Positions 3,296 to 64,000 of a DNA stretch of 64,000 nucleotides are shown in pieces (the first letter of the stretch is position 1; each line of letters starts with the position of its first letter). Made by a program: the position numbers and the translations under genes. The notes beneath the pieces were generated by a model, which was not told where the DNA came from, did no database searches, and saw only the letters and a program-made list of their open reading frames with translations. Origin of the DNA: a bacterium (GTDB lineage Bacteria; SAR324; XYD2-FULL-50-16; G965216635); assembly GCA_965216635.1 (NCBI GenBank), contig OZ244188.1, positions 219,205 to 283,204 of the forward strand, given 5' to 3'.

Positions 3296-4618
3296 TTATT
3301 TTCCATAGATATAATTTGGAAACCATAAACTAATATTAGGAAATAGCATAATTAGCAGCAATGCAAATATCATAATGAGAATAAAGGGCCAAATAGAGCT
3401 ATAAATATCTTTTATTGTAATTTCAGGAGGAGCCATAGCCCGCATTAGAAAAAGATTGTATCCAAATGGAGGAGTAATATAGGCAATTTGAGATGTAATA
3501 GTGTATAAGACACCATACCAAATAAGATTAAAGCCCAAATGATCTACAAGTGGAACATAGAGAGGAGCAACTATTACAAGCATTGCAGTATCATCAAGGA
3601 ATGTACCCATAACAAGAAAGGATATTTGCATTAAAATTAACACGGTCCAAGGGCTAAATCCGAGTTGATCTGTAAATAGATTTTCTATCACCTTAACTGC
3701 TCCCAGTCCGTCAAATACTGCCCCGAATCCCAACGCAGCAAGAATAATCCACATGAACATACAAGATATGGCTAGAGTTTGTTTGACTGATACTTCCAGA
3801 ACATGTTTATTCATCCTACCTTTGAGCACAGATGCCAACAATGCAGCCATAGCTCCGATTGCCGAACTTTCCACAAGACTTGTCCACCCTTTGACAAATG
3901 GAATCATCATTGCAGCAAAAATAAATAAAGGAAGCAAACCTGATCTTAGAAGAGCTAATTTTTCGCGAAGTGAAACTTTCCTATCATCTGATTTTAATGC
4001 AGGACCGAGTTCAGGTTGAAATTTACAGCGGACAATAATGTATATAATAAAGAGGGTCGCCATCAGCAATCCTGGAATAATTCCTGCTAGCCAAAGTCTT
4101 CCTACCGGTTGCCTTGCTATCAAGGCATATAGGACTAAGACTACAGAAGGTGGGATCAAAATTCCCAATGATGAACCAGCTTGAATTACCCCTGTAACCA
4201 TTTTTTTGTCATAATTTCGTTTTAAGAGTTCGGGTAGAGCAATTGTTGCCCCAATAGCCATACCTGCTACTGAAAGTCCATTCATAGCAGAAATAAGAAC
4301 CATTAAAATAATAGTGCCAATAGCCAAACCACCTCTAATTGGCCCCATCCATACATGGAACATACGGTATAAATCATCAGCCAGTTTTGATTCTGATAAA
4401 ATATATCCCATAAAAATAAACATAGGTAGAGTTAGTAAAGGATACCATTTCATCAATTTCATAGCAGCACCAAAAGGAATAGCCGAACCTCCAGTTCCCC
4501 ATAATGAAAGAGCAGCAATAGATGCAACAGCCCCGATAGCTCCAAAAACCCGTTGTCCTGTCAACAGCATTAGCATCATTGACGAGAACATAAAAACGGC
4601 AATAAATTCGTATGGCAT
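3296..4618 (-). CDS. dctM: TRAP transporter large permease (DctM family)
   Basis: 440-aa polytopic membrane protein with the DctM-type sequence pattern. Start overlaps the stop of the upstream dctQ-like gene (4618). Confidence 0.8.
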   Translation of the reverse strand: MPYEFIAVFMFSSMMLMLLTGQRVFGAIGAVASIAALSLWGTGGSAIPFGAAMKLMKWYPLLTLPMFIFMGYILSESKLADDLYRMFHVWMGPIRGGLAIGTIILMVLISAMNGLSVAGMAIGATIALPELLKRNYDKKMVTGVIQAGSSLGILIPPSVVLVLYALIARQPVGRLWLAGIIPGLLMATLFIIYIIVRCKFQPELGPALKSDDRKVSLREKLALLRSGLLPLFIFAAMMIPFVKGWTSLVESSAIGAMAALLASVLKGRMNKHVLEVSVKQTLAISCMFMWIILAALGFGAVFDGLGAVKVIENLFTDQLGFSPWTVLILMQISFLVMGTFLDDTAMLVIVAPLYVPLVDHLGFNLIWYGVLYTITSQIAYITPPFGYNLFLMRAMAPPEITIKDIYSSIWPFILIMIFALLLIMLFPNISLWFPNYIYGK

Positions 4619-10981: not shown

Positions 10982-11256
10982 CTAATTCAAAAGTCTTAAA
11001 TAGACCTTTGAATTTCGCTGATGTGACGGCTAGCCAAATGGTTAGAACAGGTGCGAAAAATTTTTTTAGCTCGTAGGAATACTGAAGTATTTCAAGAGTT
11101 AAAAAAATTTTTCAATGGCGTAGTAAAAAACACTACGAACCTTAAAGCTAACACAATATAGACTGCAAAAGAGCCACTGGCTCTTTTGCTAAAGCCCGTA
11201 TAGAGTGAAAGCAACAAGCTTGTTTTGGCTAAACAGAATGCAAATTCAAAAGTCTA
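10982..11256. mobile_element. Composite MITE-like repeat (about 275 bp)
   Basis: Starts aattcaaaagtcttaaatagacctttgaatttcgctg...ggctagccaaatggttagaacaggtgcg and ends gcaacaagcttgttttggctaaacagaatgcaaattcaaaagtctat. Confidence 0.7.
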
Positions 11257-11268
11257 TTAAAATTATTT

Positions 11269-37663: not shown

Positions 37664-37737
37664 TAGCGATGGGGTGAATTGAACACCCGACCTTACGATT
37701 ATGAGTCGTACGCTCTAACCATCTGAGCTACATCGCC
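37664..37737 (-). tRNA. tRNA-Met (anticodon CAT; could be Ile2-lysidine type)
   Basis: Reverse complement reads GGCGATG-TA-GCTC-AGATGGTT-AGAGC-G-TACGA-CTCATAA-TCGTA-AGGTC-GGGTG-TTCAATT-CACCC-CATCGCT-A: full cloverleaf, T-loop TTCAATT, anticodon CAT. Confidence 0.85.
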
Positions 37738-37908
37738 TTTGCAATTGTTTTAGTCTAATCTGAATAATTTTCCAAGAAAAATTTTAAACAGAAATAGGAG
37801 CTTTAATACTTGGATGAAACTGATAATTTTCTAAAGCAAAATAATCAAGATAAACTTTTAGGGATAAGTTTTGAATTTCTACTTGCATATTTTAAACTTT
37901 TTGAAAAG

Positions 37909-37982
37909 TAGCGATGGGGTGAATTGAACACCCGAACTTATGATTATGAGTCGTATGCTCTAACCATCTAAGCTACATCGCC
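37909..37982 (-). tRNA. Diverged duplicate of tRNA(CAT), likely pseudo-tRNA
   Basis: Same 74 nt with 6 substitutions, including a C-A mismatch in the anticodon stem (ATACGA/TCATA). Sits in a duplicated block with a folB 5' fragment. Confidence 0.5.
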
Positions 37983-53280: not shown

Positions 53281-54570
53281 ATGGAATCTCAAAAAATTAT
53301 GCAAACAAAAGAAATTATGCAAACAAAAGAAATCATGCAAACAAAAAAAACTATGCAAACAAAAGAAATTGTGAAATTAAGCAAAATAACACTGGCAATT
53401 TTAGCTTCGCTTTCGTGCTTGCTTTTACTTTTTGCGGGAGTAAATAATCTGCAAGCCCAAGAAGCAAGACAGCAAGGTTGGTCTATCGGGGTTAGTCCCT
53501 TTTATCTAGGTGCTAAAATCAAAACCACTACAGAAAACACCACCCTTAGAGAAGTAGTAACAACTGGAACCAGAACATTGGATTCTACGAGTGTGGCATT
53601 CAGTGCGAGTACCACCGATAATGTATCTTCGGGCGAAACTGCAGGTGTAGAGGGTGCATTGTTAGCGACTGGTGCTATAAGTTACAGCTCCAATTACAAC
53701 GCAATAGTAATCGCTGCTGTAGTGAATATTTGTGAAGATGGCACCTACGATAATAGTCCTGGAATCTATTCTTCTCGTCAGTTTGACGCAAATTCTAATC
53801 CAGCATCCTCTACAGCAACGACAGATACAGCTGCCTGTTTCAAGTACTTCCAAGGGCTAGATCTAACCTCTTTTAGTGAATTTTTAACAGGAACAGTTGT
53901 AGATTCTTCCACTACATCTGTTTCCGTTAGCAACGAAAATACCAATTTAGCAGGTAACGGATTGGAACTAGGCTACAGCTTTGAAAAGTTTCGCCTTTCT
54001 TTTAGCCTACACCAATGGAGTGCTGGAGACGATAAACTGAACAGTCAAATGGTGCTGGTGGATTACTTCCTGCCCTACGGGCTTTATGCAGGAGCTGGTT
54101 TAGCCCAAGCCAAGCTAGAAACTCCGCTAGGCTCAGATTCAAAAATAGCCCCCGCCGTTCGTTTTGGCTATAAGCGAAATTTTAGCAAAAACTTTTCTAT
54201 AGAAGCGGGACTGCTGTGGGTGGGGACAAAGCTCTCTATAAAACATACCAATGCAGCACCATTAGCAACAACAAGCTCAGCAGCGGAGCCGCTACCGATT
54301 CCTATTACCAGATCTGCATTGGTTGGAGGTCTTATAAATGCTCCAATTAGTAATATTTTATTGTATTTTGTAGATGATAGAAATAATCAATTAAGCCTCG
54401 CAGGAACTACTGATGAAGATAGAAGAATACGAGTAGACGGAACAGTAACTCCAACCTACACTGAAGGACAACAGGAGCCCCTACCCCCAAGAACTGTACC
54501 TACAAAAACAACAATAGAAGTAGAAGCACCAGCTTCTCTTTTTATTCGCTTCGTCTTAAAATTTCGCTAA
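53281..54570 (+). CDS. Outer-membrane beta-barrel family protein (paralog of 16460..17857) with N-terminal MQTKEI x4 repeat
   Basis: Four tandem 18-bp units atgcaaacaaaagaaatt at the 5' end, each beginning with ATG. Signal peptide ...NNLQAQ. C-terminal region aligns with the 522-aa paralog (LVLVDYFLPYGLYAGAGLA...VRFGYKRNF). Confidence 0.6.
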   Translation: MESQKIMQTKEIMQTKEIMQTKKTMQTKEIVKLSKITLAILASLSCLLLLFAGVNNLQAQEARQQGWSIGVSPFYLGAKIKTTTENTTLREVVTTGTRTLDSTSVAFSASTTDNVSSGETAGVEGALLATGAISYSSNYNAIVIAAVVNICEDGTYDNSPGIYSSRQFDANSNPASSTATTDTAACFKYFQGLDLTSFSEFLTGTVVDSSTTSVSVSNENTNLAGNGLELGYSFEKFRLSFSLHQWSAGDDKLNSQMVLVDYFLPYGLYAGAGLAQAKLETPLGSDSKIAPAVRFGYKRNFSKNFSIEAGLLWVGTKLSIKHTNAAPLATTSSAAEPLPIPITRSALVGGLINAPISNILLYFVDDRNNQLSLAGTTDEDRRIRVDGTVTPTYTEGQQEPLPPRTVPTKTTIEVEAPASLFIRFVLKFR

Positions 54571-54690
54571 AGAAAATATCAAGAAATTTATCGTTTTTTT
54601 TTCTTTAAAGCCTATCAGAATTTTAGACGGTTTTTTATTATTTGCTTGACTTTAGCGGATTTGTTTATTATTATTATAGAAATAAATAAT

Positions 54691-56860: not shown

Positions 56861-57167
56861 TAGACCTTTGAATTTGCCAAATAGAACAAAACTAGCTGTG
56901 ATGGCTAGCCAAATGGTTATAACAGGTGCGAAAATTTACAAAAAAGCGGAGCATACACGGTAGTATGTGAGTGTTTTTTGTAAATTTTTAATGGCGTAGT
57001 GCCACAATATAACGGGATCAGGGCACTACAAAACTTAAAGCTAGCACAATATAGACTGCAAAAGAGCCACTAACAAAAGAGCCAGTGGCTCTTTTGCTAA
57101 AGCCTGTATTGGCGTAAAAGCAATAAGCTTGTTTTGGCTAAACTAGACAAGCAAATTCAAAAGTCTA
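56861..57167. mobile_element. Composite MITE-like repeat (about 300 bp) between rpmF and plsX
   Basis: tagacctttgaatttgccaaatagaacaaaactagctgtgatggctagccaaatggtt...gcaataagcttgttttggctaaactagacaagcaaattcaaaagtcta. Confidence 0.75.
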
Positions 57168-57177
57168 ACTAATTTGA

Positions 57178-62399: not shown

Positions 62400-63122
62400 T
62401 TAAAATAATTTTGGGAGTGTATCCCTTGTGTGATTTTTACACAACAATCCAGCTGAGTAGTTTTGTTTTAATAAACTACGATCAATTATGCTGATAAAAT
62501 TTTGTTGGGAATTTAATGCATTATCAAATAAATTAAGTTGAAGTAATGATACCAACAAAGCACAAGTTCTAGCTTGGCAAGCTATGGACTTTTTAGGGTT
62601 AAATTCAATATCTGTAAAACCTTTAAATTTTAATAGTTTTTCTAGATAATCTTGATGAGGGTGAAGGGCAGTGAGGTACAACCAATCATAAAATGCAGTC
62701 TCTGGTTTCAATGACCATTTTTGTCCAAAATAATCAAATCCAATAAGTTTTCCTGATTCTTTAAGTATAAGGTCTTGTCTTGCTGATCTACTATCTTTTT
62801 CATAAATATCTGTATAAGGTCCTCCTTGTTCAAATACTTTACTCCCTTGATAAGCAGATTCAATGCTTATATATCCTCTACTAGTTTTTATTTTTAGATT
62901 GAATGCACTCAATCGCTTTCCGAGCAATACTTCAGATTTTGTAGAAGCCTCTAATAATGGCAACAAGCCTTTTTTTTTTGCTGCTTTATGTAGGGCTGCA
63001 ATATTTTTTTTCTTTTGTTCAACTGCAAAGCCAGGGTTCCATTCAAACTCAACTTGCAGTTCTTCAACTAGATTTTCTGTTTTACCAACAGGAATAAATA
63101 CGGGTCGTTTAGCCATTTTCAA
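62400..63122 (-). CDS. NADAR (YbiA-like, DUF1768) domain protein, candidate antitoxin for the adjacent DarT-like toxin
   Basis: LSAFNLKIKTSRGYISIESAYQGSKVF parallels the NADAR core FSNF....G.....SEHYFQAQKF; 240 aa; start overlaps the toxin gene end by 14 nt. Confidence 0.5.
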   Translation of the reverse strand: MKMAKRPVFIPVGKTENLVEELQVEFEWNPGFAVEQKKKNIAALHKAAKKKGLLPLLEASTKSEVLLGKRLSAFNLKIKTSRGYISIESAYQGSKVFEQGGPYTDIYEKDSRSARQDLILKESGKLIGFDYFGQKWSLKPETAFYDWLYLTALHPHQDYLEKLLKFKGFTDIEFNPKKSIACQARTCALLVSLLQLNLFDNALNSQQNFISIIDRSLLKQNYSAGLLCKNHTRDTLPKLF

Positions 63123-63633
63123 TACTTATAATCATATTTAATGGAATACAATCAGGGACAAGAATTTCTGATTTTACTGCTAATCTACGTCGCTTTTTAA
63201 TCTCTGGGTCATTCCAATCCATACCTTTGTACTTGAAAATGACATCAAAATCAATTCTTTTTTCTGCCTCCTCTGATGTAAAAAGAATAGCATCTGATTT
63301 ATTGGCTACCTCAGAGCAAAATTGTATCCCTTCTTGTAAAAGTATAGAAGATTTAATTTTCAACCACTTTGGATTTTTTATCCTTTGCTTTGATTTTACT
63401 GTATAGAGCATTGGATGTTCCTTGATAAATGTTAAATGCACAAATTTATGTAGATTTTTTTGTTTATCTGCATCATGACTCCATTTATTTCCTCCAAAAA
63501 CAGGGTGAATTTGTTGCCTTTCAATTTCTTCTAAAGAAAATATACCTTTATGTTTCTTTATTAACGCAATATTTGATTCTTCCGTAAAATGCCAGACGCT
63601 ATTAATTATATATTTTTTAATTATTTCTTTCAT
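63109..63633 (-). CDS. DarT-like (DUF4433) ADP-ribosyltransferase toxin
   Basis: N-terminal VWHFTEESNIALI (H-x-T NAD-binding element) and C-terminal RRRLAVKSEILVPDCIPL (ARTT-loop Glu, compare DarT ...AEFLV...LPL); 174 aa. Confidence 0.5.
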   Translation of the reverse strand: MKEIIKKYIINSVWHFTEESNIALIKKHKGIFSLEEIERQQIHPVFGGNKWSHDADKQKNLHKFVHLTFIKEHPMLYTVKSKQRIKNPKWLKIKSSILLQEGIQFCSEVANKSDAILFTSEEAEKRIDFDVIFKYKGMDWNDPEIKKRRRLAVKSEILVPDCIPLNMIISIENG

Positions 63634-63860
63634 TCTAGGAGTGCATTTTTATTTTTATCTATTCCAGAGAGATTTTGCGCTAATGTTTTGTTTAGCACCA
63701 ATGTATTAAATAATTTTACTTTAAAAAGTTATTAAACTATTGATTTAGCTGAATAAAATAATAAAAAACTGTGTGCTAAACGGCTAGTTTTTAAGGAAAA
63801 TAGTTTATTTTCTGGTTGTTTTCTAAACTTGTAAATCACTAATGTAATGCTTTTGTATTG

Positions 63861-64000
63861 TATAGACTTTTGAATTTGCATTCTGTTTAGCCTATGCAAG
63901 CTTATTGCTTTCACCCTATACAGGCTTTAGCAAAAGAGCCATTGGCTCTTTTGCAGTCTATCTTGTGTTAGCTTTAAGTTTTGTAATGCATTGCACTACG
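63861..64000. mobile_element. MITE-like repeat at window edge (truncated)
   Basis: tatagacttttgaatttgcattctgtttagcctatgcaagcttattgc...gcaaaagagccattggctcttttgcagtctat. Confidence 0.7.

Follow-up and report, generated by a model that had tools for sequence, protein, structure and literature searches.

Two types of DarTG toxin-antitoxin systems, DarTG1 and DarTG2, are reported to have been defined by LeRoux et al. in 2022. DarTG systems serve as the model of how DNA bases are reversibly ADP-ribosylated, and of phage defence. By the operational definition in use, a DarT system associated with a NADAR is a DarTG1 (Schuller et al., 2023, PMC11543638), and the close known representatives are those of Escherichia coli C7 and Geobacter/Trichlorobacter lovleyi (PMC11543638; PDB 8BAQ/8BAR/8BAS and 8BAT). 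In DarT1, residues R52, D54, M71, N104 and E152 are essential, and recognition of the guanine falls to N104, K74 and Y75 (Schuller et al., 2023, PMC11543638). M71 is the proposed stabiliser of an oxocarbenium intermediate. On the antitoxin side, E88, K95 and D171 of the NADAR are required for guanine de-ADP-ribosylation, and K115 of the E. coli C7 protein is dispensable for catalysis, whereas rescue in vivo depends on it (PMC11543638). The DarG1 NADARs of E. coli, T. lovleyi and S. fredii remove ADP-ribose from guanine, but not from thymine (PMC11543638). ADP-ribosylated cytidine is not hydrolysed by DarG1 NADARs either, in a 2026 study that concerns pierisin-type toxins rather than DarT (PMC12945103), and the NADAR from E. 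coli C7 also reverses guanine ADP-ribosylation on RNA (PMC11833690). Here, we describe a gene pair of this type in a 64,000-nucleotide stretch of contig OZ244188.1 from a SAR324 bacterium, referred to below as the window. It encodes a 174-residue DarT-family ADP-ribosyltransferase and a NADAR protein. The antitoxin is of the DarG1 type; the toxin belongs to a short clade whose active site differs from that of the characterised DarT1 enzymes.

Both genes are on the minus strand. The toxin gene (63109..63633) has an ATG start and encodes 174 amino acids. The open reading frame of the NADAR, as listed, covers 62400..63122 and yields 240 amino acids if read from a TTG. Overlapping frames of these lengths at these positions had been described in an earlier, sequence-only reading of the window, and this description is correct. 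The NADAR start is nevertheless most likely the ATG at 63116, which gives a protein of 238 amino acids (62400..63116), because homologues and a 238-residue database copy (P0036) begin with MAKRP. With this start, the toxin stop and the antitoxin start share an 8-nucleotide overlap, ATGGCTAA (63109..63116, minus strand), from which translational coupling can be proposed. In the canonical DarT1-NADAR pairs, by comparison, the two genes are 6-110 nucleotides apart.

The membership of the 174-residue protein in the DUF4433/DarT family, as the sequence-only reading had proposed, is well supported. Residues 14-171 match PF14487 with 64.7 bits (gathering score 22.5; E = 1.3e-17), and the PADLOC DarT model also matches (E = 3.8e-10). 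The NCBIfam DarT equivalog, which is built on DarT2, gives 26.6 bits for a cut-off of 150. A single-sequence phmmer search of the toxin against the PDB sequences retrieved no DarT and no match at all; with a family profile, the DarT of Thermosipho africanus (40.6 bits) and DarT1 of E. coli C7 (28.5 bits) were detected in the PDB. Profile-profile alignment (hhalign) of the toxin family with canonical DarT1 gave a probability of 97.3% (E = 1.8e-11), and 98.2% (E = 4.9e-14) with larger alignments. An AlphaFold2 model built from a 21-sequence family alignment is compact and confident (mean predicted local distance difference test score 94.9, predicted template modelling score 0.89). When it was compared with the PDB using Foldseek, all eight matches at E <= 1e-3 were DarT structures, from Thermus DarT2, T. 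africanus DarTG, E. coli C7 DarT1 and Mycobacterium tuberculosis DarT. The best template modelling score, 0.74, was obtained with E. coli C7 DarT1, and Tpt1/KptA as well as cholera- and pertussis-type toxins ranked far lower. As modelled, the protein thus has the DarT ADP-ribosyltransferase fold.

The downstream protein is a NADAR and not a macrodomain, as had been suspected from its sequence. It matches PF22397, the model of DarT1-associated NADAR antitoxins, with 293.9 bits (cut-off 27; E = 7.9e-88) over 211 of 212 model positions, and its residues 3-214 align with the structure of the DarT1-associated NADAR of G. lovleyi (8BAT; E = 3.2e-63). No model of PADLOC-DB v2 matches it. Residues E86 and K93, contained in SIESAYQGSKVF, correspond to the catalytic E88 and K95 of the E. 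coli C7 protein, and D169, within FTDIEFNP, corresponds to the DarG1-specific D171. Equivalents of E86, K93 and D169 are found in all 82 aligned NADARs, and E171 is also conserved. The NADAR of the window is 47-68% identical to the NADARs of canonical DarT1 toxins. Similarity does not sort the NADARs by toxin type, and the two sets are interleaved: the NADAR found beside a C7-type toxin in the Sulfurimonas locus L033 has its nearest counterpart (68%) in locus L036, where the toxin is of the window type. The protein is therefore predicted to be an ADP-ribosyl-guanine hydrolase.

The association of the two genes was studied in 80 genome loci other than that of the window, gathered by NADAR alignment in a scan of GTDB-representative genomes, in which the gene upstream of the NADAR was classified. 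In about 73 of these 80 loci, a toxin of the window type, typically of 170-180 amino acids, is found upstream of the NADAR, and the pairing also recurs on plasmids. An ATGGCT(G/A)A overlap is present in 38 of about 61 scored loci with a window-type toxin. Three loci, from Sulfurimonas (L033), Halarcobacter (L068) and Enterobacter (L076), carry an E. coli C7-type DarT1 of 204-225 amino acids; as the sample was ranked by similarity to the window NADAR, the ratio of toxin types is no estimate of their overall abundance. The adjacent and co-oriented darT and NADAR genes fit the operational definition of DarTG1, so that the pairing was rightly called DarT1-NADAR-type in the sequence-only reading. 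Neither a non-ADP-ribosyltransferase fold for the toxin, nor a non-NADAR family for its partner, nor a misaligned catalytic glutamate was encountered.

Given the DarT fold, the families to which both proteins belong, the conserved catalytic residues and the recurrent, overlapping pairing, the two genes probably form a toxin-antitoxin module of DarTG1 architecture, in which the toxin would ADP-ribosylate a nucleobase, most likely guanine at N2 in single-stranded DNA, and the NADAR would reverse the modification. According to this scheme, the toxin would use NAD+ held by the H15-F16-T17 motif and by a GGNxWSHDAD loop, with Glu156 as the catalytic residue, and would transfer ADP-ribose onto the base. 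The most likely acceptor would be guanine, at its N2 amino group, in single-stranded DNA, and replication would be blocked. The 238-residue NADAR, translated by coupling through ATGGCTAA, would hydrolyse the guanine-ADP-ribose bond, so that the cell survives. If the balance were tipped, for instance by phage infection or by loss of the module, the DNA modification would persist and replication of phage or host DNA would stop. By analogy with the characterised relatives, toxicity of the first protein, rescue by the second and a role in phage defence can be expected. The guanine-N2 target in single-stranded DNA is deduced from the family of the antitoxin rather than from the toxin, because the toxin is devoid, at the aligned positions, of the guanine-recognition and Arg/Asp residues of DarT1. 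The activity on guanine in single-stranded DNA that had been suggested from sequence thus agrees with the antitoxin family, but the toxin itself falls outside the clade in which this activity was characterised.

Part of the catalytic apparatus is readily recognised in the toxin. The HFT and KSEILVPD motifs pointed out in the sequence-only reading do occupy functional positions. H15-F16-T17 (63583..63591, minus strand), the NAD+-binding motif on strand beta-1, is invariant in the clade and is matched, by HMMER and by hhalign, to H17-F18-T19 of the E. coli C7 enzyme. Glu156 (63166..63168, minus), the predicted catalytic residue, aligns with E152 through a QAE(I/V)LV motif. M75, in H73-P74-M75 (63409..63417, minus), aligns with M71 of DarT1 by BLASTP and hhalign. 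In 64 clade members, H15, F16, T17, N21, G47, S52, D56, H66, L67, H73, P74, M75, N111, D128, R148, A152, E156, L158 and P160 are at least 95% conserved (E156, H73 and P74 in 64/64 members, M75 in 63/64, N111 in 62/64; V109 is found in 53/64). The toxin of the window carries every clade-conserved residue, its sole departures from the clade being Glu for D18 and Val for A79.

The rest of the active site differs from that of the C7-type enzymes, whose conserved set comprises H17, F18, T19, N48, D49, R52, D54, S63, M71, N104-A-A, Q150 and E152. The segment carrying N48, D49, R52 and D54 in DarT1 is replaced by the clade-specific G47-G48-N49-K-W51-S52-H53-D54-A55-D56 (63466..63495, minus), a motif that lies in the NAD-binding loop and helix and whose register is uncertain. 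In hhalign alignments, WSHDAD appears as a six-residue insertion relative to DarT1. The register of the loop varies between alignments, an alternative being N49 on N48 and H53 on R52. In V109-A110-N111 (63301..63309, minus), V109 stands at the position of N104 in DarT1 and of H119 in DarT2, and Q150 of DarT1 aligns with Lys154. In comparison with the DarTG1 toxins, the protein is 18-23% identical in profile alignments, has about 173 residues instead of about 210 and is without the C-terminal extension; a variable position 57, Val at 109, Ala or Val at 79 and Lys at 154 replace R52/D54, N104, K74, Y75 and Q150, and the GGNxWSHDAD insertion and the invariant H66, H73, N111 and R148 are added. 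Features of DarT2 are not found either: position 68 is Thr in the window toxin (Cys or Ala in the clade) and not the Tyr of the H-Y-E triad, and V109 is at the position of His119.

The distance from the characterised DarT1 clade is also seen in whole-sequence comparisons. The G. lovleyi locus (CP001089.1), reached through its NADAR, encodes a DarT1 of 211 amino acids that is 43% identical to that of E. coli C7. BLASTP of the window toxin against the G. lovleyi protein gives 25% identity over 61 amino acids (E = 0.002). Members of the characterised DarT1 clade share 35-43% identity, and the window toxin does not cluster with them. Four further G. lovleyi-type NADARs, from Pseudomonas aeruginosa, Aeromonas dhakensis, Brucella intermedia and Sulfuriferula, have DarTs of 209-215 amino acids upstream. 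A profile hidden Markov model of the window-type toxins scores at least 178 bits (median 271) on its own 64 members. The C7-type model gives 245-323 bits on its own members, a median of 28 bits on the window type and 8-28 bits on DarT2-type proteins. On this sequence evidence, the window toxin is outside the characterised DarT1 clade represented by E. coli C7 and G. lovleyi, and, judged by profile scores and by structural comparison, its clade stands at about the same distance from DarT1 and DarT2.

Several observations weigh against the simple transfer of the DarT1 mechanism to the window pair. In the HMMER and BLASTP alignments and in two hhalign alignments, N104 of DarT1 falls on V109, and N111 is two residues downstream. 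K74 and Y75 correspond to a variable residue and to an Ala (Val79 in the window toxin). The R52/D54 dyad falls on positions 57 (occupied in the clade by R, K, Q or G) and 59 (Lys). The window-type model gives 17-48 bits on nine C7-type DarT1 proteins, and the clade profile scores slightly higher on the macrodomain-linked T. africanus DarT (47 bits) than on DarT1; on Thermus DarT2 it reaches 15 bits. The DarT1 enzymes that have been tested, those of E. coli C7 and G. lovleyi, all belong to the other clade. In the antitoxin, R113 stands at the position of K115, which is Lys in 80 of 82 NADARs and Arg in 2, a conservative change that may or may not affect rescue. On the left, the pair is flanked by a housekeeping cluster for fatty-acid synthesis and no defence island, and a scan for promoters and terminators around the pair found no more sites than in shuffled sequence. 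The known DarT1 active-site solution is clearly not conserved in the aligned sequences of the window clade. As the toxin falls in a distinct clade of proteins of about 173 residues, it must, to judge from the alignments, recognise the base in another way than the E. coli C7 enzyme does. Since the register of the GGNxWSHDAD loop is uncertain, functional substitutes for R52/D54, such as H53 or D56, may exist, and N111 may substitute for N104.

These differences lead to a more far-reaching idea, which we regard as tentative and somewhat improbable. The NADAR-linked DarTs of about 173 residues would form a third DarT subfamily with a differently built active site, having no Arg/Asp dyad and no canonical Asn/His base reader but invariant S52, D56, H66, H73, N111 and R148. 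Such enzymes would either reach guanine N2 by an independent structural solution or write a mark that differs in sequence context, nucleic acid (RNA) or atom, while still being erasable by DarG1-type NADARs. In a literature search, we found no publication on the window-type toxin clade, and no paper naming a third DarT subfamily (DarT3, DarTG3, DUF4433) or splitting the NADAR-linked DarTs into two clades, the tree of LeRoux et al. (2022) not having been compared.

A specific alternative to guanine-N2 modification is that, within the same architecture, the short-clade toxin writes another mark, differing in sequence context, nucleic acid (for example guanine in RNA), base or atom, and that the NADAR hydrolyses this mark or acts in part by binding the toxin. 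The replacement of N104, K74, Y75 and R52/D54, the clade's own set of invariant residues (S52, D56, H66, H73, N111 and R148) and its equal distance from DarT1 and DarT2 agree with such a change. A contribution of binding is hinted at by K115, whose requirement for rescue and not for catalysis may reflect a non-enzymatic component (PMC11543638). An RNA target can be considered because the E. coli C7 NADAR also reverses guanine ADP-ribosylation on RNA (PMC11833690). However, the window NADAR is 47-68% identical to the partners of canonical DarT1, with identical catalytic residues, and the DarG1 NADARs tested accept guanine adducts only. Moreover, N111, which lies two residues past the N104 position on a modelled extended segment, could assume the role of N104. 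Finally, the NADARs of some related pairs are fused to enzymes acting on DNA. Downstream of window-type toxins, an 860-residue protein from Sedimentisphaerales (L007:2684-5266) carries a C-terminal fusion to a UvrD-type helicase, and a 901-residue protein from Salinispira (L035:3989-6694) a C-terminal fusion to an N6/N4 DNA methylase; NADAR and UvrD domains are likewise joined in a 337-residue database protein (P0121). The helicase and methylase fusions point to DNA as the substrate. Altogether, a mark other than that of DarT1 appears unlikely, and ADP-ribosylation of guanine N2 in single-stranded DNA is retained as the preferred reading. It is very improbable that the two genes are an inactive remnant, or a module rendered non-toxic by loss of toxin activity, in which only the NADAR functions, as an orphan de-ADP-ribosylase directed against foreign ADP-ribosyltransferases: several related loci do exist in which the toxin is truncated or absent while the NADAR is intact (L003, L004, L019, L027, L034, L037, L049, L057, L074 and L075) and the window toxin has no canonical Arg at the position aligned with R52 of DarT1, but the toxin is full length and keeps all clade-invariant residues, including H-F-T, Met75 and Glu156, the absence of the Arg is a trait of the whole conserved clade and no lesion of the window copy, the 8-nucleotide coupling overlap is intact, and the toxin model is compact and confident.

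With respect to the other described systems, the window pair is readily distinguished from DarTG2, in which DarT2 is associated with the DarG macrodomain, as in Thermus sp. 2.9/T. aquaticus, M. tuberculosis and the DarTG fusion of Thermosipho africanus (PDB 7OMV, 7YK3, 7OMU). Its antitoxin is a NADAR and not a macrodomain, and NADARs do not remove ADP-ribose from thymine; its toxin has no equivalents of the H-Y-E Tyr, of His119 or of Arg51. A combination of an ADP-ribosyltransferase with a hydrolase of the NADAR superfamily is also found in YarT-YbiA, a myxobacterial toxin paired with a YbiA-type NADAR (PMC11125620), and in ScARP/pierisin with stand-alone NADARs. However, YarT, ScARP and pierisin do not have the DarT fold (ScARP and pierisin being cholera-toxin-like), and the corresponding NADARs belong to YbiA or stand-alone families with a catalytic Glu instead of Asp and without the N-terminal beta-beta-alpha extension, whereas the window NADAR reaches 294 bits on the DarT1-specific model. 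The type of system is therefore already known, modelled in Pfam and recognisable by any Pfam run; the toxin is a variant from an uncharacterised clade.

This clade is large and widespread. A search of its profile against 1.84 billion representatives clustered at 50% identity retrieved 2,414 DarT-like proteins at E <= 1e-3; 263 of them, the representatives of the clade, reach E <= 1e-30, and most of the best 150 have 165-185 amino acids. The hosts include Gamma-, Beta- and Alphaproteobacteria, Desulfobacterota, Campylobacterota, Acidobacteriota, Bacteroidota, Planctomycetota, Chloroflexota and Cyanobacteria, among others. Clade members are also carried by 14 plasmids, 8 of which are predicted to be conjugative. 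The plasmid copies are annotated as "DarT ssDNA thymidine ADP-ribosyltransferase family protein" for the toxin and "hypothetical protein" for the NADAR. In a Xanthomonas plasmid, the pair has the identical 8-nucleotide overlap and adjoins a restriction endonuclease. The toxin had no match in the phage collection.

Variant loci were also observed. Truncated or frameshifted window-type toxin frames stand beside intact NADARs in seven loci (L003, L004, L019, L027, L034, L037 and L049; region ~3480-4008), and NADARs without a recognisable toxin are found in L057, L074 and L075. Several of the loci with truncated or frameshifted toxins come from sponge- or invertebrate-associated metagenome-assembled genomes (Ca. 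Spongiihabitans, Kistimonas). The truncated or missing toxins could be the result of decay leaving orphan antitoxins, or of errors in the assembly of these genomes. In a plasmid of Parabacteroides distasonis (NZ_OY725823.1; L084:2257-3516), a 419-residue protein has a C-terminal DarT domain that is 30% identical to the window toxin, and its N-terminal part of about 260 residues has no Pfam match. Many of the cluster representatives retrieved by the profile search are likewise extended at the N-terminus, to a total of 230-440 amino acids. These extensions could be real fusions or could arise from mis-called start codons.

For the genome of the window alone, the pair is an ordinary accessory toxin-antitoxin module. 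Its wider value comes from the toxin. The mechanism of the NADAR-linked branch is known from one toxin clade only, that of E. coli C7 and G. lovleyi, and the window shows a second, large one. Because this clade is without the residues to which DarT1 owes its guanine recognition and proton abstraction, a window-type member could be used to test whether the known toxin readers set the base specificity of DarT or whether other routes exist. The annotation of defence systems could also be improved. Censuses may undercount the clade, because PADLOC-DB v2 misses the NADAR, the score with the NCBIfam DarT equivalog is far below its cut-off and the plasmid NADARs are labelled as hypothetical; in databases, the toxins go under "thymidine ADP-ribosyltransferase family" or DUF4433.

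Concerning the surroundings of the pair, the left neighbour is a YggS-like pyridoxal phosphate protein (PF01168), in agreement with the yggS flank noted earlier. It closes a plsX-fabD-fabG-fabF cluster, directly after which the pair follows on the opposite strand. The GC content of the pair (0.31-0.33) is slightly lower than that of its flanks (0.35-0.39), a drop too small to argue convincingly for a recent transfer. No recognisable Shine-Dalgarno sequence is found before the toxin ATG (63634-63650), which is preceded by GCACTCCTAGA-ATG, or before the NADAR (63117-63130). Combined with a GC content of about 33-38%, their absence may reflect a lineage that relies little on Shine-Dalgarno sequences, as Bacteroidota do.

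The right neighbour of the pair is a repeat of about 125-150 nucleotides, running from about 63860 to the end of the window. It is present in three copies within the window (63860-64000, plus strand; 11120-11260 and 57028-57170, minus strand). Each copy holds a perfect 12-base-pair hairpin, GCAAAAGAGCCA/TGGCTCTTTTGC, nested in ATAGACT...AGTCTAT, and folding of the repeat as single-stranded DNA is better than that of shuffled sequence (z = -3.4). Its designation as a miniature inverted-repeat transposable element (MITE) is plausible. A match of one copy to the Qrr small RNA (31.4 bits for a cut-off of 50) was discarded, being no better than chance over the window as a whole and missing in the other copies. 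Elsewhere in the window, and unrelated to the pair, the ribosomal protein L20 leader is matched weakly, below its threshold, at 54512-54606 (plus strand; 33.7 bits for a cut-off of 58.7), and two tRNA genes lie at 37664-37982 (minus strand).

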